From a virus, in the IMG/VR virus record IMGVR_UViG_3300042114_000252: a stretch of 64,000 bases of DNA, one strand, 5' to 3'. How positions within the stretch are numbered: position 1 is the first letter of the stretch; each line of letters opens with the position of its first letter. Both the position numbers and the translations under genes were made by a program. The notes beneath the pieces were generated by a model. The model did no database searches, had not been told where the DNA came from, and saw nothing but the letters and a program-made list of their open reading frames with translations. This document shows positions 6,116-63,465 of the stretch, piece after piece.

Positions 6116-6832
6116 TTAGATTGTTTTTCTAAAACTTGTTTTTAAATCAAATCCTTGTTGAACTATTTTTTCTTTATTTGAAAAAAAAACTTCTTTTTCT
6201 TGATTCTTTTCTTTCCTTAAATACATTTCTAACTCTTGTATTATCTGTTCAGGTGATAACTTTTTAATAAGTTCTAATTTTTTAAGAATTGGATTAATTT
6301 CAAGCATTGACTCCATCATAACCTTTTGAGCAATACTTCCATCCAAATTATCTTTATATAAAGAATAAGAAATCAATGGTTCTTTTGTTACAACCCTTAA
6401 AGATTTTAACAAATCATCCCAATTTTTAGTTAAAAAATTATTCAACCATTTTTTATCTAGTTTGTTTAATTCAAATCTTAAATATTCATCTTTATTTAAA
6501 ATATTAATTTTTTCTTCCAATTCTTCAATAGAATAAGCAACTATTGATTTATAACCAACAGATATTATATAATTTCTTATTGTAAAAAATGGAACAATAA
6601 TATCTCCCACTATAACAAAAGAATACATAACTTGGTTTTTATATATATTTCTTTCATTTCCATAAGAATATTTCTGAAAAACTTTTTTTATTTCTTTCCT
6701 TAATTTTCCTTCTTCACTTTGTTCATTTATATATTTATTATCCCTATATCTTTCTAAAACTAAATCTTTTTCTCCACACATACCCAAAGCACATCCATCA
6801 TAATAATCTTGAAAGTTTGTTAAAATCTTCAT
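6116..6832 (-). CDS. Hypothetical protein, phage-like (MKILTNFQDYYD...GFDLKTSFR)
   Basis: ORF track, 238 aa. Confidence 0.75.
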   Translation of the reverse strand: MKILTNFQDYYDGCALGMCGEKDLVLERYRDNKYINEQSEEGKLRKEIKKVFQKYSYGNERNIYKNQVMYSFVIVGDIIVPFFTIRNYIISVGYKSIVAYSIEELEEKINILNKDEYLRFELNKLDKKWLNNFLTKNWDDLLKSLRVVTKEPLISYSLYKDNLDGSIAQKVMMESMLEINPILKKLELIKKLSPEQIIQELEMYLRKEKNQEKEVFFSNKEKIVQQGFDLKTSFRKTI

Positions 6833-9163: not shown

Positions 9164-12100
9164 TTAAAACTTAAATTCTCCTTGAATCCCATTTTTATTT
9201 TTTGTATATTCCAAAATATTTTCTTCTTTATTTTTATTTTTTGAATATTTTTGAATATTTTTATTTATTTTTTCTATTATTTCTTGAATATTCATATTAT
9301 TTCTTTCTTCTTCAACTATTTTAAAACAACCTCTATCAAAATCAGAATATAAATGTTTATCATAAGATATTTTTGTTTCACCATTTACTATTTGTTTTGT
9401 TGGTGGATATTCATCAGGAAAAAACTTTTCTTCTTCTTTTGGATTTTTTAATTTACATAAAACCTTTTCATCTAACTTTGTATAATTCAATCCCAATCCA
9501 GCAAATTTTATATTATTATTAAAAGATTTCAATACACTTACACATTCTTCTAAACCATTTACTACATCTTCTCCAACACTTGATACCCTAATCATTGAAG
9601 GAGCATTTGTATTTTCATCAATAATATAATTTCCTGTTTCATCTTTTTTCTTTATATATATTTTTCCACCTTCATAATTGTCAAAAATTATATTATTTTT
9701 TGAATCTAAATAAGAAATAGCAGCTCCAACATTTATAGAAATAGGATATAAAATATCAAATATTTTTTCTTCTAACTCTTCTTTTTCTATATTATAATCT
9801 TCTTCTTTATTGTATTTTTCTAATAATTTTAATAATTCTTCTGGTAATTCTTTAACCAAGATTTTTGTTCTTATAAAAGAAAAATATTTTTCAGGAACAA
9901 GTGGAACATTTTTTAATAAACTGGAAGCCGCTCCATTTATTGTATAACAACAACCAGTAGATATTCCCCAAGTAGTTGTTTGATGATTCATGCTAGGTAA
10001 TACTTGAGACATTGTAAAATAACCATCTTTATCTTGTTCTATACTTTTATAAAAATAAAAAGGATACTTTTCATCTTTTTCTTTAAAAAGATTATGCTGT
10101 TTTTGACCATCTTTAAACAAATTAACATATTTTCTAATATCATATTCTCCAATTGTTTCACCATTAGTTCCACAAGCATACTTTAGCTCTTTTGGAATAA
10201 TTACTTTTGTAATTTCTTCTTCTATCATATTAGCTAAATATTTTTTATTACACACATCTAAAACATCTAACAATTCATATCCACTTTTGGTTATATTATT
10301 ATTTTTAACATTTTTTTCTAATATATTAATATGTTTTTTAATTAAATACTCTTTATTTTTTTCTAATATATTTATCATATTAGGAAACATTTTCAGAAAT
10401 CCATCTAATCCAGCCTTAACCACCAATTCTTCTTTAAAATAAGGCATTATATTATCTACAATATATCTAACATTTTTTATATTTTCTATTTTTGATCTTT
10501 CATTTTTTATATTTTCATCCAAAGTATCATTTAATTCTTCATTATATAAAGATACATTATTTAAAAAAGAACCAAACCCATCATTATGTCTTAATTCATA
10601 CAACGTTTTCTTTCTCTCTACTATAAATCTATTTTTTTTATAATAAAAATCAATCATTTCTTTTTCTAATTCAAAAAACTCTTCCAACTTTCCTTGATTA
10701 AAATCTAAATCATAAAACATATTTATATTTTCAAAAAAATAATTTTCTATCTTATAATGACTATCCATTAATTCTTTATTTTCTTTCAAGAACATATTTT
10801 CATCTAAACCACCATGTATAGCTTTAAAATATTTAGAAAAAAACACATTTTCAAAAGAAGAAAATAATCTTTTCATTTTAATCAAATTATTATCTTTATT
10901 TGCTTCAAAAAAAGGAATATCATTTAATTCATACTCACTAGTTAATTTTTTTAATAAAGATTTATCCCAAATAGATTGCAAATCTTTTTTTTCTTCTTTT
11001 ACATTATTATAACCTATATCCTTTTTTAAGAAAAAACTTATAATTTTATTTATTTCTTTTATTTCAGTTCCTTCATAATTCATAAAAGAAAAAACATCAA
11101 AAACATATTCAAAATCTTCAATAGAAATTTTAGAAACCTTAATATTAAATATTTCTTTTAATTTTTTAAATTTCTCAATATCAAAATTATCAATTGTAAT
11201 TCTTTTATTTTCTATTTTTTTTATACAAGAAAAGAAAATATCATTTTTTATATTTATATCTTTAAACCAAGATGCTATTTGTTTTTTTAATTGTAAAAAT
11301 TCTAATTGAATATTTTCCAATTCTTCTTGTAAATTATTATAGCTAACTAAATCATAATTCTTTTCTCCATCTACCAATATTTTAATAGATTCTTCTACTT
11401 TATTTCTTTTATTTAGTAATTCTTCTTCTTTTTGTTCTTTGTATTTTATAGCTATAGGATTCATTAAAAATTCATTATACATTTCTTTTAATTCTTCTTC
11501 TTTTTCAAATAAAAACCTATAATCTATATTTGTAAAATGTTTACTATAATCTAAATCTATTTTATCTTTTTCATCAACATTTATACTTTCTTTTTTTTCT
11601 TCTATTTTTTCAACAATGCTACAATTTTGGTTTTTAAGATTAAAAACAATGTCATAATTAAGACTAAAATTTAAAACATCTATATCTTTGGTTATATTTT
11701 CTATTTCTTTTAAATAACTTTCTTCTTTCATAAAAGCAAGAGCAGAAAACAAAGCTCTTAAAAAAAAATCTATTTTCTTTTTATCTTTTTTATTTTCTTC
11801 TATATAAGTATTTATATAATTCATAATTTTTTCTTTATATAATTCATACTTTCCAATTCTCTTATAACTTTTAATTATTTCAAACATTTCTTTTGGATTT
11901 ATATTATTTAAATTCAAAACTTCATTTAAATAAATTTCTACCATATTATAAGAGTCTTTATTTACACTTGTTATAGCATTACAAAAAGGGAATAAAACTT
12001 CTTTAATATCATAATTTTTTTCTTTTGCTAATTTTAATCCTAAATTAAACAAATATTCTAATGAATCTTTATTTAATTTATAAGCCCAAGATTTTACAGT

Positions 12101-15100
12101 TATTAAATAATTTAAAACTATATTTCTCTTTTTTGAATCATTAAATGAAGAAATAAATTCTTCTAAAAATTGTTTCTTTTTTATATCATTCTTTTCATTA
12201 TTTGTATCAGTTGACAAAACGGTTAATAAGAATTCTTTAAACATTGTAGCCATACCAAATAATTTATCATCTTTTAAATATTCAAAATATAATTCTTTTA
12301 ACTTTATCTTTTTATTTTCAACAATAATTTCATTATCCATATATTCTATTAAATAATTAATATTTCTAATAGAATTATAAAATAACTTTATTACATCTTC
12401 TTTATCTAAAGAATAACCATTACTTATTGTTTCATTAATTGTTTTTACAAAACCTATTTCATTATCTAAATAATTACTAACCTTTATATATTCATTATCA
12501 CTAGAATTATTATATGGATTATTAAATAAATTAGTTTCTAATTGACTTCTAAATACACCGGTTAATTTAGGATTTAAAATAGCAACATTATTTTTATAAA
12601 ATATATCTACTAAATAACTTTTTTTATATATACATTTTTTATATTTCTCTATATCTCCTTGATTTTTTGTAAAAGCAAGAGGTATTAAATCTATATAAAA
12701 ATCATGATCAAACCCTAACTTATCTAAATATTTTTCTTTAAATAATCTATACCCATTTGTTAATTTCTTTAAATCTTCCTCTATCTTATAATAATTAGAT
12801 TTATCTCCTAAAGAATTTTCACCATAAGAATAATTTTTATATATATTATCATTCATTTTCATATAACGATATTCAGTTCTATCTCTATATATTTCTATAT
12901 TTTTTTCATAACTTCTATCAAAAACTTTATATTCTTCATAATTTTCACTATTTATAGAAAAAATTCTTTCTCTATACTTTTGATTTTCTTCTTTTTCACT
13001 AGGTCTATGTGTTTTACTAATTTCTATATTGTTTTTTAAATATTCTATTGTTTTTTCTGTTAAATTATTTTCTTTCCCTAATAGATTATTAGCTACAACA
13101 ACTTCTATTAACTTTGAAATACTTTCAACATTTAAATTAAAATCAATTCCATTAAAGTGTTTTTCAAAACCTATTTCAATAGCATTTTTATTACTATCAT
13201 TATGAAATACTAAATCATGAATAGACAAAACATTCAATTTATCATCAAAATTAAACATATAATCATCACTTAATATCTCTTTATTTATACTTTTTTCTGA
13301 AATATCATTCAAATATTCTTCAAAAGAAGAATAATCTTTTAATTTTAAAGCTCTATACTTATATTCTTTTATTACACTTTCAGTTTTAAAATTGTAAGAA
13401 TAAGAACCACTTTCTCCACTTTCTAGAACCCTTTCATTATTTATTTTTATATCATCTAACAAATTATATCTTTTATCAAAAATTATATCTTTATAATTAT
13501 CTATTTTTTCATTTATTATTCTTGTTGATCCAAAATAATTTTCTTCCATATTTTTTACTATATCTTTTTCAACCTTTAATATATTTAATGTATTTATTAC
13601 TAAGTATTTAACTTCTTCTTTTTTTATAGTTTCTAAATTAATTAGAAATTTATTTATTTCTAATACCTTATCCATTTTTTGTTTAAAATCTTCTAAATTA
13701 AAATTATTATCATAATCATAATAGTTAATTAAAATAGAAGCTTTTTGTTCAACAATGTTTTCTGATTTATTTTCACTTATTTTTTTAATTAATACAGACC
13801 TTTGTTCTTTGATATTTTCTATCATTTTTTTTACACTTTCTATATCATTTATTTTATTTGCAAAAATTAAATCCAACATACTATGATATATATATTCTTT
13901 TTTTATTATATTACTATTCTTTTCTACTAATTTTATATAAAATTCTTCATCAACTTCTTTATATCTTAATAAACTATCAAAAACTATTCCTACATAACCA
14001 TCAATATATTTATTTATATATTGTTTTTCCATTTTAGTTTTAGATATATTTAATACCTTTTCTTCTATTTTTTTATAATTTTCTAATATAAAATCTTTTT
14101 CTTCCTTATTGAAAATTATATCATTATCTTTATTTGTTAAAACATCAAATATTTTTACACTTATATTATTTATATTATTTTCTTTTTCTAAATATTCATT
14201 ATTATCTTTATTTTTATATTCTTCCTCTAATGGTTTATCAAAATAAGAAATAATATTTTCTAATAATAAAGGATTTTCATTTGCTATCATTGAAAAACTT
14301 TTATTTTCTATAAGTAAGTCATCTTTATTAAGCAAAGTGTATATTATTTCTTCCTTTTTTATATCAAAATCAGTAAACAAATCATTATTATTTAATAATG
14401 ATAAAATATTATTTTTTAAAACACTTGTTTTTTCATTTTTATCACTTTTAATATATTCTTGAACAAGAGAAACTAGCCAATCTTTTTTTGTTTCTACTCT
14501 TATATTTGTTGAAACAACATTTTCATATTTTTTAAAATCTTTTAAAAAAACAATACATCCATCAATAATTTCTTTTTGATTTTTAATACTATCTTTTAAT
14601 TTTTCTATTTCTTTTTGAGATAAGTCTATATTACTATTTTGAATTTTATTTTCAAAAATAGAACTTTTTAATAAATTAATATTTATATATAAATATATTA
14701 ATTTATTTATATTACTTGATGAATCTTTATACATATCTTTTTTTAAACCAAAAATATTTAAAAAATCTATTATACCTTCATTATTTTTTATTTTTGATAC
14801 AACATTTTCAAAAAACAAATTAGCAAAACCATCACATTCATTATTTTTAAACATATATTTTTCTAAAATAAATGTATCTTTAAATTTTTCCACAAAAGCT
14901 TTTTTTTGATTATCATCTTCAAAAAGTTTTATATTATGAACTATTTTATTTAAATTACCTCTAAAATAAGTATCTATATTAATTTTCATAGAATTAGTTT
15001 CTAAAGTTTGAACATAATAACCATTTCTATTTTTCATTAATCTATTATAATTTTTTATTCCTTTTCTTTCAATATATTGATCTTTCATTTCCCTATTATC

Positions 15101-16576
15101 TTTTTCAGCATTCAATATATCAAATAACTTTTGATTTTTGCTTTCTTTTACTACACTTTCAAAAGATTCTTTATATGAATAATCTACAGGTAAATTATCT
15201 AAAAATAAACTTGTAGCATTGTTATATGTAATGTTTTTTAACAACATATTTTTTAATATTATTTTTGATATAAAATCTAATCTTTCTTTTGAAATATTTG
15301 AAATAATATTTGAAATTAAAAAACTATTTTCTACTTCATTACTATAACCACTAACATTTGTTAAAAGTTTTTTCAAAGATTCTTTTTCTGTGCTTAAAAA
15401 ACGACTTCCTAATAAACTTTTAAATAATGGAGATACTTTTTTTTCTTTATAAACATTAAAAAAAGCAATTAATTCTTCTTCATTTGCTTTTTCATATATA
15501 TATTTCAATAAATCATATTTTGTTTCTAATTTATAATCTATATTCTTTTCTTTATTTTCTCCATCATTAGAAAGATTAAAAATAACATTTACTTTTTTTA
15601 TATTTTCATAATCTTTATCATTTTGGATTTTTTGACTATCTAAGCCTTTTAAGTATTCAAACTTTATAATATTTTTTAATAAAGGATTTTTTATAAAAAA
15701 AACCTTCAAATCTTCTTCTTTTAATATATCTAATTCTATACTTTTTATAAAAACATCTTTTAACAGACTTTGCATATCATAAGCTCTATCAGATAAACCT
15801 TTATATTTTTCTTCTATATTATTAAAATCTATAATAAAACTTTGATTAAATGTATATTCTAAAATATTTAATATTTCTTTTTTATTATTTTTATTTATTT
15901 CCAAAAAGTTAATTATATTTTTTTCATTATCCTTTAAATAACTAAAAAAAGAAATTGGATTATATTTAAATCCATTTTCTTCTTTTTTGTTGTCTTTTTT
16001 AATCATTAATTTTTTAACTAATTCTTCATAATAAGGTATATTATTTAAAAAACCTTGGCTTAAATTAAAACCATTTTTATAAATATAATTTTGAATAATT
16101 AACTTTAAATCTTTTTTATTTTTCTTTATATTATTATCTATTTCTTTTTCTAAATCTTTCCCTATTATATTATTATTATTTTTTAATCTTCTTTTTAATT
16201 CATTTGCTAAAACAAAAAAGAAATAAGTTTTATTTATTCTTAATTCATTTGATATATAATCTTTTAAAATAGGTAACACACCTTCTTTTAATAATAAATA
16301 ATCAAAAGTTACACTTGATCTTCCTACTTCACCTTCTTTTGAAAATTTTTCAAAATCCTTATTAGAAAAATCTTTATATAATGAAAATAAATGATTTAAA
16401 TTTGAAACATCTATTTCTTTTACAACTTCATTAAAATTTCTAAATAGTAACTCTTCATTATTATAATTTATATTTTTATTTACTTTTTCTATAGTTTCTT
16501 TATTTATTTTTTCATCTAATAATTTTATTAAATTATTTAGAGCTTCAATTTGAAAATCAGATATCTTTACTATCAT
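9164..16576 (-). CDS. Giant (2470 aa) protein of unknown function, paralogue 1
   Basis: ORF track; colinear similarity to 18903..26411, strongest in the C-terminal ~400 aa. Confidence 0.9.
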   Translation of the reverse strand: MIVKISDFQIEALNNLIKLLDEKINKETIEKVNKNINYNNEELLFRNFNEVVKEIDVSNLNHLFSLYKDFSNKDFEKFSKEGEVGRSSVTFDYLLLKEGVLPILKDYISNELRINKTYFFFVLANELKRRLKNNNNIIGKDLEKEIDNNIKKNKKDLKLIIQNYIYKNGFNLSQGFLNNIPYYEELVKKLMIKKDNKKEENGFKYNPISFFSYLKDNEKNIINFLEINKNNKKEILNILEYTFNQSFIIDFNNIEEKYKGLSDRAYDMQSLLKDVFIKSIELDILKEEDLKVFFIKNPLLKNIIKFEYLKGLDSQKIQNDKDYENIKKVNVIFNLSNDGENKEKNIDYKLETKYDLLKYIYEKANEEELIAFFNVYKEKKVSPLFKSLLGSRFLSTEKESLKKLLTNVSGYSNEVENSFLISNIISNISKERLDFISKIILKNMLLKNITYNNATSLFLDNLPVDYSYKESFESVVKESKNQKLFDILNAEKDNREMKDQYIERKGIKNYNRLMKNRNGYYVQTLETNSMKINIDTYFRGNLNKIVHNIKLFEDDNQKKAFVEKFKDTFILEKYMFKNNECDGFANLFFENVVSKIKNNEGIIDFLNIFGLKKDMYKDSSSNINKLIYLYININLLKSSIFENKIQNSNIDLSQKEIEKLKDSIKNQKEIIDGCIVFLKDFKKYENVVSTNIRVETKKDWLVSLVQEYIKSDKNEKTSVLKNNILSLLNNNDLFTDFDIKKEEIIYTLLNKDDLLIENKSFSMIANENPLLLENIISYFDKPLEEEYKNKDNNEYLEKENNINNISVKIFDVLTNKDNDIIFNKEEKDFILENYKKIEEKVLNISKTKMEKQYINKYIDGYVGIVFDSLLRYKEVDEEFYIKLVEKNSNIIKKEYIYHSMLDLIFANKINDIESVKKMIENIKEQRSVLIKKISENKSENIVEQKASILINYYDYDNNFNLEDFKQKMDKVLEINKFLINLETIKKEEVKYLVINTLNILKVEKDIVKNMEENYFGSTRIINEKIDNYKDIIFDKRYNLLDDIKINNERVLESGESGSYSYNFKTESVIKEYKYRALKLKDYSSFEEYLNDISEKSINKEILSDDYMFNFDDKLNVLSIHDLVFHNDSNKNAIEIGFEKHFNGIDFNLNVESISKLIEVVVANNLLGKENNLTEKTIEYLKNNIEISKTHRPSEKEENQKYRERIFSINSENYEEYKVFDRSYEKNIEIYRDRTEYRYMKMNDNIYKNYSYGENSLGDKSNYYKIEEDLKKLTNGYRLFKEKYLDKLGFDHDFYIDLIPLAFTKNQGDIEKYKKCIYKKSYLVDIFYKNNVAILNPKLTGVFRSQLETNLFNNPYNNSSDNEYIKVSNYLDNEIGFVKTINETISNGYSLDKEDVIKLFYNSIRNINYLIEYMDNEIIVENKKIKLKELYFEYLKDDKLFGMATMFKEFLLTVLSTDTNNEKNDIKKKQFLEEFISSFNDSKKRNIVLNYLITVKSWAYKLNKDSLEYLFNLGLKLAKEKNYDIKEVLFPFCNAITSVNKDSYNMVEIYLNEVLNLNNINPKEMFEIIKSYKRIGKYELYKEKIMNYINTYIEENKKDKKKIDFFLRALFSALAFMKEESYLKEIENITKDIDVLNFSLNYDIVFNLKNQNCSIVEKIEEKKESINVDEKDKIDLDYSKHFTNIDYRFLFEKEEELKEMYNEFLMNPIAIKYKEQKEEELLNKRNKVEESIKILVDGEKNYDLVSYNNLQEELENIQLEFLQLKKQIASWFKDINIKNDIFFSCIKKIENKRITIDNFDIEKFKKLKEIFNIKVSKISIEDFEYVFDVFSFMNYEGTEIKEINKIISFFLKKDIGYNNVKEEKKDLQSIWDKSLLKKLTSEYELNDIPFFEANKDNNLIKMKRLFSSFENVFFSKYFKAIHGGLDENMFLKENKELMDSHYKIENYFFENINMFYDLDFNQGKLEEFFELEKEMIDFYYKKNRFIVERKKTLYELRHNDGFGSFLNNVSLYNEELNDTLDENIKNERSKIENIKNVRYIVDNIMPYFKEELVVKAGLDGFLKMFPNMINILEKNKEYLIKKHINILEKNVKNNNITKSGYELLDVLDVCNKKYLANMIEEEITKVIIPKELKYACGTNGETIGEYDIRKYVNLFKDGQKQHNLFKEKDEKYPFYFYKSIEQDKDGYFTMSQVLPSMNHQTTTWGISTGCCYTINGAASSLLKNVPLVPEKYFSFIRTKILVKELPEELLKLLEKYNKEEDYNIEKEELEEKIFDILYPISINVGAAISYLDSKNNIIFDNYEGGKIYIKKKDETGNYIIDENTNAPSMIRVSSVGEDVVNGLEECVSVLKSFNNNIKFAGLGLNYTKLDEKVLCKLKNPKEEEKFFPDEYPPTKQIVNGETKISYDKHLYSDFDRGCFKIVEEERNNMNIQEIIEKINKNIQKYSKNKNKEENILEYTKNKNGIQGEFKF

Positions 16577-16687
16577 ATTTATTTCCTTATATATTTTATA
16601 TGCATAAATATATTATAAATAAAAATTAACAAATCTAATACTATTTATTTATTTTTATTTTAAATATCAAAATTATTAAGAAAATAC

Positions 16688-16716
16688 TTGACAAGCTTTA
16701 AAAAAAATGCTATTAT
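16688..16716 (+). promoter_or_regulatory. Sigma70 promoter TTGACA-N17-TATTAT upstream of the TAXI operon
   Basis: TTGACA at 16688..16693; TATTAT at 16711..16716 preceded by TG. Confidence 0.7.
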
Positions 16717-16758
16717 TCTACAATTTCCAAAAAAAATACATAGAAAGGTAAAAAAAAT

Positions 16759-17622
16759 ATGAATGAAATAGCAAAAATTGAAGAAGAAGTAAAAAAAGAA
16801 TTTGAAAACAAAGAAAAAACATCTTTGTTATTAAAAAGAATTGGAATTGGAATTGGAGGAATATTTATTTTAGCTTTAACAGGCACGTTATTAGCTAGTG
16901 CTTTAACAGCTGGAATTGCATTAAGTGGTCTACTTGTTATTGGAACAGTAGGAATTATAGCAGGAATATTTGTAAAAAATAATTTTCCAAGATGGGTTTT
17001 ATCTATTGAAAATAGAGTAAAAGAGGATAATCATAGGGAAATGTTAAAACATTTAGAAAATTTAAAGAAAAATGTTAAATCAAATCCTATTGAACAAATG
17101 GAAAATCAATATATTGAACAAAGAAATAAACTAGAAGCTTTTAAAGAAAATATTAAAGAATTTTCTGCAGCAATAGAATCAGCAAAAAGAAATCTAGATA
17201 ATAGTAAATCAAAATACCCTGATACAGATTTTTCTAGAGAAACAATTCAAATAAACAAAATGGATGAATTTAAGAATATAAAGAAGGCAAAATACAATAA
17301 AGCAAACGAAACTTTGGAATTATTCAAAAATAAAGTAGATATAGCTAGGGAAAAATGGAATCTCCAACTATCTGCAAACAAAGCTATAGCTAAAATGAAT
17401 AATACAGACAAAGATTCTCTAATTCAAAATATCCTTACAGAAGTTGCTTTTGAAGAAGTACATGCATCTAATGATGCATTGTTTGCTTCTTTAGAGATGG
17501 AATTGAATAGTATGGAAGACTATAAAATTGAAATTACTAAAAATATAACTAATCAATCTAATGAAAAAATTATTGATGTAGATATTCAAGAAGTGGAGGT
17601 TCAAAACAATGGAAGAAAATAA
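16759..17622 (+). CDS. Membrane-anchored coiled-coil protein (2 TM then long coiled coil; PspA-like architecture)
   Basis: Hydrophobic stretch at about aa 24-70 followed by helical K/E/Q-rich sequence. Confidence 0.6.
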   Translation: MNEIAKIEEEVKKEFENKEKTSLLLKRIGIGIGGIFILALTGTLLASALTAGIALSGLLVIGTVGIIAGIFVKNNFPRWVLSIENRVKEDNHREMLKHLENLKKNVKSNPIEQMENQYIEQRNKLEAFKENIKEFSAAIESAKRNLDNSKSKYPDTDFSRETIQINKMDEFKNIKKAKYNKANETLELFKNKVDIAREKWNLQLSANKAIAKMNNTDKDSLIQNILTEVAFEEVHASNDALFASLEMELNSMEDYKIEITKNITNQSNEKIIDVDIQEVEVQNNGRK

Positions 17623-17866
17623 AGAGATATCTACATTTAGTAAAGGAAGTAAAATATTTGGAATCTTAATTATTGTTATTTCTATTATATTTATATATAT
17701 TTCATATAAAATGGAAGATAGCAAAAACACAGAAACAATTTCAAACTATGAAAATGTAGTTAATAGTGAAATAAGTACATTAGAAAGTTCAGCAACACAA
17801 GAAGAAACACAAATAGTTGGAGTACAAAATAGTACACCTATAAAAGACGACAAATTTAATTTTTAG
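17609..17866 (+). CDS. Small single-TM protein
   Basis: ORF track, 85 aa; overlaps the end of the previous gene. Confidence 0.7.
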   Translation: MEENKEISTFSKGSKIFGILIIVISIIFIYISYKMEDSKNTETISNYENVVNSEISTLESSATQEETQIVGVQNSTPIKDDKFNF

Positions 17867-17886
17867 AAAAAAGGAAACATACAATT

Positions 17887-18813
17887 ATGAAAAAAACAAT
17901 ATTAATGAGCATTATTTTAGGACTATTAACAATAGGAAATTGTTATGCAGCAGATGAATTAAGGGTTGCAACTGGGCAAAAAGGAAAAGGGTATTCTAAA
18001 ATATTTGAAGAACTAAATGAAGTTTGTGGGAATGAAGTTACACTTGAAGAAATTGAATCAAAAGGTTCTTTAGACAATGTAGATAAATTGGTTACAAATG
18101 AAGCAGATGTTGGTTTTATTCAATTAGATACAATGTATCAAATGATGAATAGTGATGATCAAGTAAGAAAACTTAGAACAGTTGCTTCTATGCATACAAA
18201 CTTATTACATATATTAACTTTAACAAATGGAACCCCAATAAAACAATTAGTTAATAACAATAAAGAAGTTTATGAAATCTGGAAAGATAATAAAAAAGAA
18301 GTTATTAAAAATCTTAAAATTACAAAATTTTCTCAATTAAGAGGAATGAAAGTAGGACTTGTAGGAACATCACAAATTATAGTTAGAAAATTGAATGGAA
18401 TGATGAACTATGGATTACAAACTATTGATTATGAAAAAGATGATGATGCAATAGCAGCACTAAAAGAAGGAAAAATTATGGCAGTATTCACAGTAGCTGC
18501 TTTTCCACATGGAATAATTAATAAACTTACAACAACCAATGGAATGTCATTAATTCCATATGATTTAATTCCACCACAACCTTACGAATTATCTAAAAAA
18601 AGTTATAGTAAATTAGGAGCTTATGGAATTGGATTTTTAAGTTCAAGAAACATGCTAATGAGTAGAAATTTTAGTGGAAATAAAGCAAAAGTTGTTCAAA
18701 AATTAAAACAATGTATTTCTAAAAACTTAAATAACTTCAAAGACAATTATAGTCCAGCTTGGAGTGAAATAGATAGTTTAAACAACTATTATAACTTACC
18801 TCAAGCAAAATAA
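17887..18813 (+). CDS. TAXI-family (TRAP-associated) solute-binding protein with signal peptide
   Basis: Signal peptide; RVATGQKGKGY; GSLDNVDKL...ADVGFIQLD. Confidence 0.8.
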   Translation: MKKTILMSIILGLLTIGNCYAADELRVATGQKGKGYSKIFEELNEVCGNEVTLEEIESKGSLDNVDKLVTNEADVGFIQLDTMYQMMNSDDQVRKLRTVASMHTNLLHILTLTNGTPIKQLVNNNKEVYEIWKDNKKEVIKNLKITKFSQLRGMKVGLVGTSQIIVRKLNGMMNYGLQTIDYEKDDDAIAALKEGKIMAVFTVAAFPHGIINKLTTTNGMSLIPYDLIPPQPYELSKKSYSKLGAYGIGFLSSRNMLMSRNFSGNKAKVVQKLKQCISKNLNNFKDNYSPAWSEIDSLNNYYNLPQAK

Positions 18814-18828
18814 TCAAAAAATCTAGAA

Positions 18829-33245: not shown

Positions 33246-35399
33246 TTAAAAAATACTAGAAGCATATAATTTTTGCATTGAAAAATAATCTCCTTCATTA
33301 TTTTTTAATAAAAAACTAGAAAACAAACCTTTACAAGTAAAAGGATGCAATCCATTATATCTATTTTTAATTAATTCAAATTCTTTATCATCTAAATCAA
33401 AATAACTTTGAAATCTACTCAAATCACTTTCACACAATTTCATAATAATATAATTATTTACATTTTCTACTAAAATTCTTCCAAAATCAGAAAACTTTTC
33501 CTTTTCAATTCCAAACTTATTTTGGTTTTCAAAATCAGAAAAAGATTCAGAAATAATATAAACATATGAATTTGCCATTCTAGAAACTTTCAAAAAGTTT
33601 TCTAATATATGATTTGAACCAGTTATTAATCTTTTATTTTCTATAGCTTTTGAAAAAGAAACTTCATTAAACAAAACATTTGTTGTTTCTTTATTTTTAT
33701 TTAAAAGAAAATTATTTACCATAGATATTATAAAAGAAGAAATAGTTAATTCTTTTGAAATATCATCTAATAAATAAGTATCAAAATTAATTATAACCAT
33801 ATCTTTTTCAAAACTTATTTTTTCTTTATTTTTATTAAATAAATCACAATATTTTCCATTATCACAATATAACTTCAAATTATTTATTTCTTTTTCACAT
33901 TCAGGATATTTTTTTTCAAACAATTCAGTTATATTTTTTATATCTAAATAAACACCATATAAATCATAAGCTTCTTTAAAAATAAATCCTATTTTATTTG
34001 TAATTCCATAATAATAATTTCTATATTCAGAATCATTTTTATCATATATTCTATTAATCATCAATGAAAAAATAAAATCTCTTAAGAATGGATACATTTT
34101 ATCACTAAAAAAAATCTTTTCATAATTTTCTTCACTAGAACTTTTAATTGCTTCAACATTAGCAAACATTCCTAAAGGATTTATATTAAAATTTAATGTT
34201 CCATCTTTATTTACAACATTAATAATTTGAGCATCACATAATTCAGCAAACTTATTAAGCTCACCATTTCTTGCAAAAACAATAACTTGTTCACCTTTTG
34301 AATATTTTTCTAAAGCTATTGTTTTTTTTAATGTTGTTAATCCACATCCTCCACATCCAACAATTAAACAATGATTGTTATCATAAACATCACCTAATTT
34401 CAATTCACTTATTTTATGTTCATTTAACAATAATAGATTTTCTTGTTTTTTATTATTATTTGTATCAAATATAAAATCAGAAAATTGCAATATTTGTCTT
34501 GTAGACAACAAATTCTTTTTATTTTTCATTCTTTTCTCATATTCTTCTATATTAAAACCAATAGGTAATCTTGACACCATTTCTTTACTAGAAACATTTT
34601 CTTTTATATGTTTAATATCACTAGAAATAAAACTACTTCTAACAAAACCTTTTCCATTACTAATATTACTAGTTGTAAATAAATTAAATTCTACATCATA
34701 CAATTGACGAAAATTATTTTCACTTTTTATTAATGTATTTAAAAAAGAATCTTTATCCTTGTCAAAAAAAGAAAAAAAATTACTTATTTTTTCTTTTTCT
34801 TTTTTAATCCATAATTCTTTTATTGTTTTTTGTTTAAATGTAAAACATAATAAAAAATCATCATCTAAATATTTTTTTATAGCCTTATTAAAATCTATAT
34901 TTTTTATTTTTTCATCATCTTCAGTTAAATCAAATTCTATATGATTCCAAGTTTTACTTAACACATAATCTACATTTTCTAAACCTTTATCATAATTAAT
35001 TATATTATCTAAAACATATTCTTTATTTTCATAATCTTTAATTAAAAAATTAATTTTTTCTACATCTTCTTCATATTCAGTTGTTATTGTTAAGAAAACT
35101 TTGACATAAAATGGATCAGCATTTTCTTTAAATTCTATAGACATATTTTTTATAACTTCATTTATTTTTTCATTCTTTTTATTATGGTTTAAATTAAATA
35201 AATCCAATTCTTCACTTATTTCTTTTGTTGCTGAATAATATATTTGGATATAAGATGAGTTTGGAATATTTTTAATTAGATGTTCTAAAATATCATTATG
35301 AAATCTATTATTTATACATTTATCTATTTCACAAATAACACAATATTTATTAACTCCCTTACTTGAATCTATTTTTACTATTCTTTTTTTTAATAACAT
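33246..35399 (-). CDS. TraC/VirB4-like ATPase with degenerate Walker motifs
   Basis: NNHCLIVGCGGCGLT, NINPL and VLFNEV, then ..VSRMANSYVYIISESFSDF; layout typical of F-type TraC. Confidence 0.7.
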   Translation of the reverse strand: MLLKKRIVKIDSSKGVNKYCVICEIDKCINNRFHNDILEHLIKNIPNSSYIQIYYSATKEISEELDLFNLNHNKKNEKINEVIKNMSIEFKENADPFYVKVFLTITTEYEEDVEKINFLIKDYENKEYVLDNIINYDKGLENVDYVLSKTWNHIEFDLTEDDEKIKNIDFNKAIKKYLDDDFLLCFTFKQKTIKELWIKKEKEKISNFFSFFDKDKDSFLNTLIKSENNFRQLYDVEFNLFTTSNISNGKGFVRSSFISSDIKHIKENVSSKEMVSRLPIGFNIEEYEKRMKNKKNLLSTRQILQFSDFIFDTNNNKKQENLLLLNEHKISELKLGDVYDNNHCLIVGCGGCGLTTLKKTIALEKYSKGEQVIVFARNGELNKFAELCDAQIINVVNKDGTLNFNINPLGMFANVEAIKSSSEENYEKIFFSDKMYPFLRDFIFSLMINRIYDKNDSEYRNYYYGITNKIGFIFKEAYDLYGVYLDIKNITELFEKKYPECEKEINNLKLYCDNGKYCDLFNKNKEKISFEKDMVIINFDTYLLDDISKELTISSFIISMVNNFLLNKNKETTNVLFNEVSFSKAIENKRLITGSNHILENFLKVSRMANSYVYIISESFSDFENQNKFGIEKEKFSDFGRILVENVNNYIIMKLCESDLSRFQSYFDLDDKEFELIKNRYNGLHPFTCKGLFSSFLLKNNEGDYFSMQKLYASSIF

Positions 35400-47924: not shown

Positions 47925-48827
47925 TTATAATTCTTTGATTAACATTTCTTGCAATTCTTTAGATAAATCTTCCATTTTAGGAATAACAACATTAACAGTT
48001 ACAATCAGACTTCCATATTCTTTTGTAGATTGATTTGCCAATACTCCTTGATCTTTGATTTTAAACCTTTGATTTTGTTTCGTATTTTTTGGAATAGATA
48101 ATAACACATCTTTATATAATGTTTTTACATTTACTTTTCCACCAAAAATAGCATCTTTTAATGATATATTTATAGTCAAACTTAAATCATTTCCATTTCT
48201 TTTATATTCTTCATCTTCCAAAACATTTAAAGTTATATATAAATCTCCCCTATTTTGGCCACTATATATTCTTCCTTTTCCTTTAATTCTAAGTTTCTGT
48301 CCAGTTCTTACACCTTGGGGAATTTTTATAGAAATATTTTCATTTTGCATTGAAATTGTTTTTGTTCCTCCAATAATAGATGTTCTAAAATCAATATTTA
48401 AACTAGACTCTATATCTAAATCCTTATTTGAAAATCCCTTATTCCCAGAATATCCTCTACTAGTAAATGGATCAAACCCTTGACCTCCACCAAAACCAAA
48501 ATCTTCACCTGTTCTTTTTTTATTAAACATATTCTTTAATATATCATTTAAATCCATATCACCATAAGAAGCTTTTTGTGATTGTGAAAAATCATGAAAA
48601 TTTTGTCCACCAAAAATATTATCACCATATTGATCATATTCAGCTTTTCTTGTTTTATCTCCCAAAACTTCATAAGCAGCATTTATTTCTTTAAACTTAT
48701 CTTCTGCTTCTGGTGATTTATTTAAATCAGGATGATATTTTTTTGCTAATATTCTATATTGTTTTTTTATTTCAGCTATTGTAGCATTTTCTGCAACTTC
48801 TAATGTTTTATATAAACTTTTTGCCAT
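47925..48827 (-). CDS. cbpA: DnaJ-family co-chaperone CbpA (J domain + DnaJ_C, no zinc finger)
   Basis: HPD motif, KFKEINAAYEVL and GGQNFHDFS, typical of Campylobacterota CbpA. Confidence 0.9.
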   Translation of the reverse strand: MAKSLYKTLEVAENATIAEIKKQYRILAKKYHPDLNKSPEAEDKFKEINAAYEVLGDKTRKAEYDQYGDNIFGGQNFHDFSQSQKASYGDMDLNDILKNMFNKKRTGEDFGFGGGQGFDPFTSRGYSGNKGFSNKDLDIESSLNIDFRTSIIGGTKTISMQNENISIKIPQGVRTGQKLRIKGKGRIYSGQNRGDLYITLNVLEDEEYKRNGNDLSLTINISLKDAIFGGKVNVKTLYKDVLLSIPKNTKQNQRFKIKDQGVLANQSTKEYGSLIVTVNVVIPKMEDLSKELQEMLIKEL

Positions 48828-60183: not shown

Positions 60184-62421
60184 TCAAAACATAACAATCC
60201 TAATATTCCCACTATCATAAATTCTTCTAAAACCTATATTATATAAATTATAAGTTTTACTAATATTATCATTATATTCATAATTTAAATTAACATTTTT
60301 ATTATTTCTATATTTTAAATATTCTTTTTTATTTTGTTTTAATTCATTAACTATATTAATAATTTTGTTCTTATTATTTAATTCTTCTTTTTGATATATT
60401 TTGTGAATATTATTATTTAAAATATATAAATAATTTGGTTTGGTTTTAAATGCTATAACATTAGTTTCATTATTATCTACTTCATTATTAATTAACATTA
60501 AATCATTAAAACTATCAATCAATGAAAACTTATTCCATCTTCTATTAGCATAATAAGTTATTTTTTCTACATTTTGTGTGGAAAATAATATATTATTTAT
60601 ATCAGTATTATTTGTTTTTAAATAATTAAACAAATATTTAATTACTTTATAATTATTTAATTTTGAATCAATTTGAAAATCTTGTTCTATAAAATCTATT
60701 GAATTACATATATCTACAATAGTAAATTCTTTTTGTTGGAAGTTTGAGACATTGTTAACTACAAAACCTAAAAAACCATATATTAAACTTATTAAATTAC
60801 TAGTTTTTTTATCATATAAACCAAAAAATACTACATTATTTTCTTTATGTTTTAAAAATAAATTATTAAAACTATATTCATTGTATTCCAAAGAATTATT
60901 TTCTAAAAAAGTAATGATTATTTCTTTATTTTTTTGAATATTATTGTAGTCTATTTCTTTTATATATATATTTTCATTATATTCATAACTTAAATTAACA
61001 TTTTCATTATTTTTATTATTTAGTTCTTTTAATTTAATAGAAATATTTTGTTTTAATATATTTAACCATATTTTTTTCTTTTGTTGATTTAGCCACTCAT
61101 CTTCATTAATTTGAAATAAACTAATCCCTTTTTCTTCACATAAATTAGTTTTAATTTGATGCAAATATTTTTCTTTTGCTTCTTTTTCAAAATTATTAAA
61201 AATAGAACGCTTATGTTTTCCAAATGAATGATACAACAAACCATTATATTCTATAGCTATATTAAGCTTAGGAATATAAATATCTAATTCTTTTCTTACA
61301 TTTTGTAAAGCTTTTCTATCATTAATTAAAACTTCTTCTTTAGCTAAATCAAGAGGAAACATTTTTAATATTTCTTTTTGTAATTCCTTTTCCATATTTC
61401 CAAAACTGTCTAATTGTATTCCTTCAAATGCTTTTTTGTTATTTTTTAAATAAGTGTTTAAAGATGTTATATTTATATTAAAAAATAATAAAACCTTTTT
61501 TTTATCTAATTTTTTTTTTCCTCTATTGATATATACAAAATTATTTATTATATATTCTACATTAAATAATTCTATATTTAATATATGTTTTTGAGTCGGA
61601 CTTTTACAACCATATCTTTTTAAACTAGTATTTATTGCTCTTTCTCTTATTTCTTTATTTTGTAAAGTATATTCTTTTCCATAATTTTCTAAACAAGTAA
61701 CCTTTCGTTTTTCTTTCACTTCTTCATTTTGTAGAGCATATTCATTTCCATATCTTTCTAAACATGTTTTTTTTGATTTATTCCTTACTTCTTTATTTTG
61801 TAGAACATATTCATTTCCATATTTTTCTAAACATGTCTTTTTTGATTTCTTTTTTACTTCTTCATTTTGAGAAGCATATTCTACACCATATCTTTCCATT
61901 GTAGTTTTTTTTGCTTTATTTTTTATTTCTTCATTTTGAAATGGATTTTCACATCCATATTTTTTTAATGAAACATTCTTTATTTTTTCTTTTATTTCTT
62001 CATTTTGAAATGGATTTTCACATCCATATTTTTCTAAACATGTTTGTTTTATTTTTTCTTTAAATTCTTCTTTTTGAAATGGATTTTCACAACCATGACG
62101 TTCTAAACAAGTTTTTTTGATTTTTTCATACCTACACTTATTTGAACAAGTTGAAGAATATAATATTCTATTAAATTTAGTTGGGTTTAAATTACATATT
62201 TCACACATATTTCTTTTTGTAATATTATTATTTAAACAATAATACCTTTCTTCATTTGATATTGTATTATCATTAGGAAGAAAACTAGTAAAGTGAAATA
62301 AAGATTCTTTGAGAATTATATCATTTTTTAGATATTGATTTATTTTTGAAGAAGACAAAAAACTTGTTTTAGTTAAACAATTTGTCTTTAAAAATTTAAG
62401 TAATTCTTCTTTTGAAAGCAT
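60184..62421 (-). CDS. Putative homing endonuclease (Hef/Vsr-like nuclease domain) with eight 23-aa TCLEKYG repeats
   Basis: Repeats TCLEKYGCENPFQNEEIKEKIKN; nuclease motif ELDIYIPKLNIAIEYNGLLYH...QINEDEW. Confidence 0.75.
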   Translation of the reverse strand: MLSKEELLKFLKTNCLTKTSFLSSSKINQYLKNDIILKESLFHFTSFLPNDNTISNEERYYCLNNNITKRNMCEICNLNPTKFNRILYSSTCSNKCRYEKIKKTCLERHGCENPFQKEEFKEKIKQTCLEKYGCENPFQNEEIKEKIKNVSLKKYGCENPFQNEEIKNKAKKTTMERYGVEYASQNEEVKKKSKKTCLEKYGNEYVLQNKEVRNKSKKTCLERYGNEYALQNEEVKEKRKVTCLENYGKEYTLQNKEIRERAINTSLKRYGCKSPTQKHILNIELFNVEYIINNFVYINRGKKKLDKKKVLLFFNINITSLNTYLKNNKKAFEGIQLDSFGNMEKELQKEILKMFPLDLAKEEVLINDRKALQNVRKELDIYIPKLNIAIEYNGLLYHSFGKHKRSIFNNFEKEAKEKYLHQIKTNLCEEKGISLFQINEDEWLNQQKKKIWLNILKQNISIKLKELNNKNNENVNLSYEYNENIYIKEIDYNNIQKNKEIIITFLENNSLEYNEYSFNNLFLKHKENNVVFFGLYDKKTSNLISLIYGFLGFVVNNVSNFQQKEFTIVDICNSIDFIEQDFQIDSKLNNYKVIKYLFNYLKTNNTDINNILFSTQNVEKITYYANRRWNKFSLIDSFNDLMLINNEVDNNETNVIAFKTKPNYLYILNNNIHKIYQKEELNNKNKIINIVNELKQNKKEYLKYRNNKNVNLNYEYNDNISKTYNLYNIGFRRIYDSGNIRIVMF

Positions 62422-62430
62422 TAAAAAAAA

Positions 62431-63465
62431 TTATTCATCAGAATCAGAAGATTCATCAGCTAAAACTACACTTGAATCAGTTTTAATTACTTTTAATATT
62501 TTTTCTTCTATTTCTTGAGCTATTGAAGGATTTTCTTTTAAATAAACTTTACTATTTTCTTTTCCTTGCCCTAATTTAGAATCATTATAACTAAACCAAG
62601 CACCAGCTTTGTCAATAATATTTAATTTAACTCCATAATCTATTAACTCTCCCAATTTAGAAATACCCTCTCCAAACATTATATCAAACTCTGTTGTCTT
62701 AAAAGGGGGCGCTACTTTGTTCTTAACTATTTTCACTTTAGTTCTATTTCCAATAGGGTTTTCTCCTTGCTTTAAAGTAGCAATTCTTCTAATATCTAAC
62801 CTAACACTAGCATAAAATTTAAGAGCATTTCCTCCAGTTGTTGTTTCAGGACTTCCATAACCCATCATACCAATTTTCATTCTAATTTGGTTAATAAAAA
62901 TAACTGTTACATTCATTTTATTCATAATACCAGTTATTTTTCTCAATGCTTTTGACATTAATCTAGCTTGAACTCCAACTTGTTGATCATCCATATCTCC
63001 ATCTATTTCAACTTTTGGAGTAAGTGCAGCAACACTATCCACAACAATTAGATTAACAGCTCCACTTCTTACAAGAGTTTCAAGTATTTCTAAAGCTTGT
63101 TCACCATAATCAGGCTGAGAAACCAAAAGATTTTCAACATCTACACCAATATCTTTAGCATATTTTATATCTAAAGCATGTTCAGCATCTATAAATGCAC
63201 AAACCCCCCCATTTTTTTGGCATTCAGCAATAGCATGTAAAGTAAGTGTTGTTTTTCCTGAACTTTCTGGTCCATATATTTCTATAACTCTACCTTGAGG
63301 AAGTCCCCCAACACCTAATGAAACGTCTAAACCAATAGAACCTGTACTAATTACATCAATAGGCTCTATTACTTTATCTCCAAGTCTAATCACTGTCCCT
63401 TTTCCAAAAGACTTATCTATTTGTTTAATCGCATTTTCTAAATTCTTTTTTTGATCTTCTGTCAT
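62431..63465 (-). CDS. recA: Recombinase RecA
   Basis: [21 protein letters not shown] and [19 protein letters not shown] (Campylobacterota-type). Confidence 0.98.

Follow-up and report, generated by a model that had tools for sequence, protein, structure and literature searches.

The window, by which we mean the whole stretch of 64,000 nucleotides that was analysed, carries two genes whose giant, predicted soluble products make up a genuine orphan family of two members, old in origin and typified by a strongly constrained C-terminal module. Giant gene 1 (9164..16576, minus strand) is an intact ORF of 2,470 codons with an RBS (AAGGA) located 7-8 nt 5' of its ATG, and giant gene 2 (18903..26411, minus strand) is an intact ORF of 2,502 codons as annotated. 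A sequence-only reading of this DNA had described two colinear genes in the same orientation, and both ORFs are indeed found exactly at these coordinates and on this strand, stop-free on translation (2,470 and 2,502 residues). The coding strand of the giant genes is 45-47% A and 34-35% T, such that stops make up a fraction of ~0.12 of random codons, or one in every ~8-9 codons of a random frame of this composition. The chance probability of frames so long is ~1e-138 for giant gene 1 and ~1e-133 for giant gene 2, on which grounds we regard both ORFs as genes. Translation of giant gene 2 probably begins at the second ATG (26396), five codons downstream of the annotated one, as GGAG lies 9 nt upstream of the second ATG and is lacking at the annotated ATG. 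Initiation at an internal site ahead of the core of the giant proteins was also considered and dismissed, an RBS being absent there. The predicted products are ~290-kDa soluble proteins that, as had been claimed from the letters, possess neither a TM segment (peak Kyte-Doolittle 19-mer values of 1.45 and 1.11) nor an N-terminus with the look of a signal peptide.

The giant proteins are 41% identical to one another over their full length, with 6% gaps (BLASTP), where 8% identity would be expected for unrelated sequences of the same composition. When identity is scored per 100 columns, it measures 27-50% up to residue 1708 (23-48% over most of the length), 65% at residues 1709-1808, 34-43% at 1809-2104, and 62, 75 and 64% over residues 2105-2403 of the tail, with the last columns of the alignment identical in 36 of 68. 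The C-terminal module thus spans residues ~2105-2423 of giant protein 1 (9308..10264, minus strand; 62-75% identical to the paralogue, dN 0.24) and is conserved as residues ~2137-2455 of giant protein 2 (19047..20003, minus strand). Within it, a core of 85% identity and strongest constraint occupies residues 2185-2244 in giant protein 1 (9845..10024, minus strand) and 2217-2276 in giant protein 2 (19584..19763, minus strand). Common to both cores are His2198, Trp2203, the Cys2209-Cys2210 pair and Arg2237 (gene 1 numbering), including a His-x10-Cys-Cys arrangement, though with only two sequences compared (n=2) such invariant residues carry little weight. The residues G/A/S/T/P/C/W/H account for 42% of the core (2185-2244) vs. 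5-26% in the rest of the giant protein. All Cys, His and Trp residues kept between the copies lie beyond residue 1497, five conserved Cys fall within 2109-2345, and both proteins end alike, with G-x-Q-G-x-F-x-F at the extreme C-terminus. The conserved blocks that had been listed earlier, MNHQTTTWGIST to YSDFDRG, are all exact common runs. The description of the C-terminal blocks as near-identical is right in that this is the most conserved part of the proteins and overstated in that the tail is only 62-85% identical; similarly, the N-terminal halves are divergent, as had been said, yet they remain strictly colinear and clearly constrained.

A second conserved island, absent from the sequence-only reading, lies upstream of the module at residues 1685-1860 of giant protein 1 (10997..11524, minus strand; ~63% identity) and 1738-1914 of giant protein 2 (20670..21200, minus strand), and is marked by the exact common runs DYRFLF, FLMNPIAIKYKEQKE, WFKDINIKN and ISFFLKKDIGY. 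No internal repeats were seen in the giant proteins, and no third copy was seen in the 64-kb window. Scans of the giant proteins for Walker A, HExxH, DEAD, CxxC and GDSL returned no motif, and GxSxG matched once per protein, at positions that are not shared.

The distribution of constraint is more clearly appreciated at the level of substitutions. Following dN/dS along the alignment, a check proposed together with the earlier claims, places the strongest constraint in the C-terminal ~320 residues; as dS is saturated, dN was used, and it measures 0.24 in residues 2105-2403 vs. 0.54 in residues 1-2104. GC3 of the giant genes is 8%, and in a benchmark of full synonymous randomisation 72% of identical residues still have the same codon. 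The observed same-codon fraction among identical residues is 0.59-0.86 along the genes (0.73, 0.80 and 0.59 in the tail windows, ~0.71 together). These fractions match the 0.72 saturation benchmark, and we therefore consider synonymous sites to be saturated throughout and the duplication to be old. Given the saturated dS, an omega near 1 in the body does not signify neutrality; rather, the 30-40% identity of the body against the 8% floor indicates that it is constrained as well. The whole polypeptide is hence under purifying selection, with length and order kept. Judged from their sequences, the giant genes represent an old tandem duplication in which the copies have separate upstream regions and are parted by 2.3 kb of genes on the opposite strand.

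These intervening genes (16759..18813, plus strand) encode a 287-aa protein with two TM-like segments followed by a 308-aa TAXI-type protein (NMT1_3, E 1e-12) with a signal-like N-terminus, in keeping with the claim that the giant genes flank TAXI genes. An AT-rich divergent intergenic region (16577..16758) lies upstream of giant gene 1 and would provide this gene with its own transcription start region. The AT-rich region upstream of giant gene 2 (26412..26620, minus strand) holds a 22-nt tandem duplication, in which the unit ATATATATGTAAAATAATTTAT occurs twice at ~26440-26490 (minus strand). With ~180-210 bp of non-coding AT-rich DNA upstream of each, both giant genes probably have their own promoters. 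A promoter consensus scan found 176 sites vs. 192 expected, and promoter and terminator scans are uninformative in DNA that is 80% AT. A 7-bp AT-rich hairpin (AGTAGAA/TTCTACT) at 18831-18850, in the gap where the 3' ends of the TAXI gene and giant gene 2 converge, may act as a terminator in both directions.

The wider replicon measures ~93 kb with 20% GC; the window is 17-27% GC throughout, and nearly all of its genes are on the minus strand. Directly upstream of giant gene 2 is a gene for a 338-aa protein (26621..27637, minus strand) with ~7 TM-like segments and no family match, which by topology alone could be a VirB6-like channel protein. A 717-aa VirB4/TraC-like ATPase is encoded 7 kb upstream of giant gene 2 (33246..35399, minus strand) and is recognised by three weak concordant matches (AAA_10, E 2.5e-4; Rickettsiales plasmid TraC, E 3e-4; PDB 4ag5, E 0.09 over 350 residues). 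The ORF at 28024-29376 (minus strand) encodes a 450-aa orphan with two sub-threshold matches, to the N-terminal domain of a T4-type large terminase (E 0.054) and to a PADLOC Cas8a row (E 3e-4). At 60184-63465 (minus strand), a well-conserved RecA (Pfam, E 3e-137) adjoins a 745-aa DUF7487/homing-endonuclease-like protein, and a full DnaJ/CbpA-type co-chaperone with a J domain and DnaJ_C is encoded at 47925-48827 (minus strand). Elsewhere, the window holds 16 tRNA genes, a C5 methylase and two TnpB genes. No capsid, portal or tail genes, and no complete phage or conjugation module, were recognised in the 64 kb.

As far as searched, the giant genes form a family of two. The exhaustive HMMER scan covered the tail (401 residues) and the body (residues 1-2100) was searched by word index. 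The former, run against 1.84 billion representatives (~15 billion proteins), found no relative beyond the two copies; one match, to a 74-residue translation of a tandem repeat in which 25 residues matched seven times, was taken as chance. A word-index search of 5.8 billion proteins returned the two copies alone for the tail, and for residues 1-2100 it returned only the query, missing even the paralogue and so proving insensitive for the body. Neither the tail nor the whole protein matched plasmids or 50,697 phage records by tblastn, and no back-translated pattern was matched in IMG/VR, in GTDB genomes or in JGI metagenomes; a degenerate DNA pattern for NHQTTTWGI matched nothing, its own contig included. 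A pattern identical to the window likewise had no hit in the JGI metagenomes or IMG/VR, which places the source contig in a different archive. No family was found in either giant protein in Pfam (E up to 1 for whole proteins, up to 10 for the tail), NCBIfam or PADLOC, PHROGs yielded a single non-significant row (E 0.24), and a PDB sequence search gave no credible match. Each giant protein is listed once in the protein database, both on one contig of 92,906 bp. Attempts to locate related elements through RecA gave only host-like or unrelated contigs with nothing else in common, the RecA of the window being 76% identical to one from an IMG/VR “provirus” contig of 27% GC on which no other gene of the window recurs. 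TnpB led to no related element, the VirB4-like protein and the product of ORF 6116-6832 had no relatives among phages, and no related replicon was found in the collections scanned.

With respect to function, the best explanation is a tentative one, in which each giant protein would be an effector of the mobile element and consist of a carrier body plus a cysteine-dependent head, either enzymatic or binding. The long body is probably helical for the most part and would act as a carrier or scaffold, the two copies of which have diverged; its hydrophobic periodicity at 100 degrees shows a weak excess (1.10 vs. 0.98 in a shuffled control). The C-terminal module would serve as the common working head, most likely as a cysteine-dependent enzyme or a tight-binding module. 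The low dN of the tail, the clustering of Cys, His and Trp and the unusual composition of the core all argue for such a head. The giant proteins would probably act inside a cell as element-encoded effectors, a view favoured by their having no TM segment or signal peptide and by the VirB4-like ATPase and 7-TM protein encoded upstream on the same strand, and they may be handed over by this adjacent VirB4-type apparatus. Against a catalytic head stands the finding of no family, PDB or fold match, and the type IV secretion (T4SS) context consists of one weakly matched ATPase and one membrane topology. Moreover, the strong conservation of the tail is just as compatible with a docking or assembly domain.

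Such a domain lies at the heart of the closest competitor, a somewhat doubtful proposal that is nonetheless nearly as likely as a carrier with a cysteine-dependent head. Here, the C-terminal module would be a shared, non-catalytic domain for docking, incorporation or translocation, by which both giants are loaded into the same machine, either a capsid or a VirB4-type channel, and the functions would reside in the bodies. T4SS substrates carry their signals at the C-terminus, and packaging of the phage N4 virion RNA polymerase requires its C-terminal domain. A slowly evolving tail on a faster body, the presence of a VirB4-like ATPase and a polytopic membrane protein as neighbours, and the like C-terminal ends of the two proteins would all be accounted for. 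Less readily accommodated are the last 67 residues, which belong to the less conserved portion of the tail (the 36 of 68 columns noted above), and the Cys/His/Trp/Thr/Gly-rich core, which resembles an active or binding site more than a signal; in addition, a complete secretion or virion gene set was not recognised in the window.

A bolder version of the catalytic reading, which we consider rather unlikely, holds that the tail would be a new enzyme family with a new fold and a His-x10-Cys-Cys centre, known from this replicon alone and mounted on two diverged bodies of 2,100 residues. If this were the case, the pair would stand for a class of giant effectors of mobile elements that has yet to be described and that is invisible to sequence methods. 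Structure prediction offers little guidance in this regard: AlphaFold models built from two-sequence alignments reached a mean pLDDT of 34.6 for the 401-aa tail and 38.7 for the 238-aa core, too low for a fold, and Foldseek on the 238-aa model (pLDDT 38.7) returned a best hit at E 0.3 and TM 0.11, which is noise.

It is improbable that the giants instead have a structural role in a phage-like particle, as fibre, internal body or ejection proteins, with the tail as a folding or trimerisation module. Their size, the lack of an export signal and the array of 16 tRNA genes on the replicon would suit such a role, as would the faint large-terminase match of ORF 28024-29376 (E 0.054) and the matches of ORFs 6116-6832 and 16759-17622 to PHROGs of unknown function. 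On the other hand, capsid, portal, tail and Peptidase_S74 matches occur nowhere in the window, the giant proteins have no internal repeats, tblastn against the 50,697 phage records was empty, and fibres usually keep the N-terminus and vary the C-terminus. An intramolecular chaperone of the Peptidase_S74 type at the C-terminus of the giant proteins gave no match in Pfam or PHROGs.

More improbable still is a specific enzymatic identity for the tail, namely that of a diverged Cys-Ntn amidohydrolase of the choloylglycine hydrolase/AAT/NAAA clan, in which self-cleavage before Cys2209 or Cys2210 would free an enzyme of ~260 residues from the giant body. This lead stems from language-model neighbours, all of which belong to this clan for both the 401-residue tail and the part from the Cys onward, with scores of 0.85-0.87 (lead grade). 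The 262 aa from the Cys pair to the C-terminus are comparable to hit lengths of 228-305 aa, and a small residue (Gly) precedes the Cys pair in one copy. Opposed to this are hhalign probabilities of 0.2% for the tail against C. perfringens CBAH and 0.1% (E 0.4-0.5) against a 13-sequence CBAH alignment, with the Cys pair off the nucleophile; within the clan the comparison covered CBAH, with an alignment of the C. perfringens protein and 12 plasmid genes, and the query profile comprised two sequences. Pfam showed no match even at E 10, and 102-121 of 256 language-model features were in common, where true members usually have at least 170. As compared with the Cys-Ntn hydrolases at large (PF02275 choloylglycine hydrolase/penicillin V acylase, PF03417 AAT, NAAA/acid ceramidase), the tail is alike in its conserved Cys and similar downstream length. 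It does not reproduce the Cys-Arg-Asp spacing of the family, as the tail Arg lies at +27/28 vs. +16, and the residue before the Cys varies between the giant proteins (Gly in one, Lys in the second). The Cys-Ntn lead is not supported at the profile level, a judgement that pertains to a query profile of only two sequences.

Finally, it is scarcely credible that the tail is conserved only through recent gene conversion homogenising the two 3' ends, for although the longest exact nucleotide match between the giant genes (41 nt at 9687..9727, partner 19426-19466, minus strand, encoding GAAISYLDSKNNII) falls within the tail and the element carries its own RecA, tail and body are equally diverged at synonymous sites (pS 0.46 vs. 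0.43), the same-codon fraction of the tail sits at the saturation value (~0.71 vs. 0.72), and the top 300-nt block is just 78% identical. An equal pS together with a lower dN argues that the tail is held by stronger purifying selection and not by recent conversion. The two genes do constitute direct repeats ~9.74 kb apart (register spacing 9,676-9,775 bp), and a crossover between them would leave one chimeric gene and remove the opposite-strand genes. It had been proposed that recombination between the 3' ends would excise the TAXI operon. The direct-repeat geometry fits this proposal, but the top DNA blocks, 165-300 nt in length, reach no more than 72-78% identity and no exact match exceeds 41 nt; such excision is accordingly possible and should be rare.

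Few products of the mobilome are as poorly understood as the giant soluble proteins of mobile elements, and where one has been solved, it proved to be an injected polymerase, an anti-defence enzyme or an effector carrier. The present pair costs its replicon ~15 kb, or ~16% of ~93 kb, and has remained unbroken since a duplication that lies far enough back for synonymous sites to be saturated, with a tail that has no relative in 1.84 billion representatives. Residues ~2100-2470 and the island at 1685-1860 represent clean, well-delimited targets for structure determination. The value of the pair is at present potential.

Among known systems, the virion RNA polymerases of N4 and crAss-like phages are giant proteins packaged in the virion. 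These are soluble proteins of 2,000-3,500 residues from AT-rich elements, like the giant pair, and a terminal domain that serves packaging, as in these polymerases, would give a conserved tail. Unlike them, the giant proteins have no polymerase match in Pfam, PHROGs or the PDB, their sole D-x-D is DFDRG with no invariant third Asp, in contrast to the Asp triad of the polymerases, and no virion genes were recognised in the window. A comparison with T4SS substrates draws on the VirB4-like ATPase (E 2.5e-4, 3e-4 and 0.09) and the 7-TM protein; no coupling protein or relaxase was recognised in the window. The polyvalent proteins of phages and conjugative elements, which carry 2-15 recognisable domains of disparate activity per chain (Iyer, Burroughs, Anand, de Souza and Aravind, 2017; PMC5512222), were invoked in the sequence-only reading, together with anti-host proteins, as a likeness. 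The giant pair is similar to them in being very large and soluble, in having no export signal and in its location on a probably mobile replicon near a VirB4-like ATPase. It differs in that zero domains are recognised (Pfam, PHROGs, NCBIfam, PADLOC), where at least two recognisable disparate domains define a polyvalent protein, and the likeness is hence retained as an analogy only. By that analogy, an early role after entry, as for polyvalent proteins, is plausible for the giant proteins as well.
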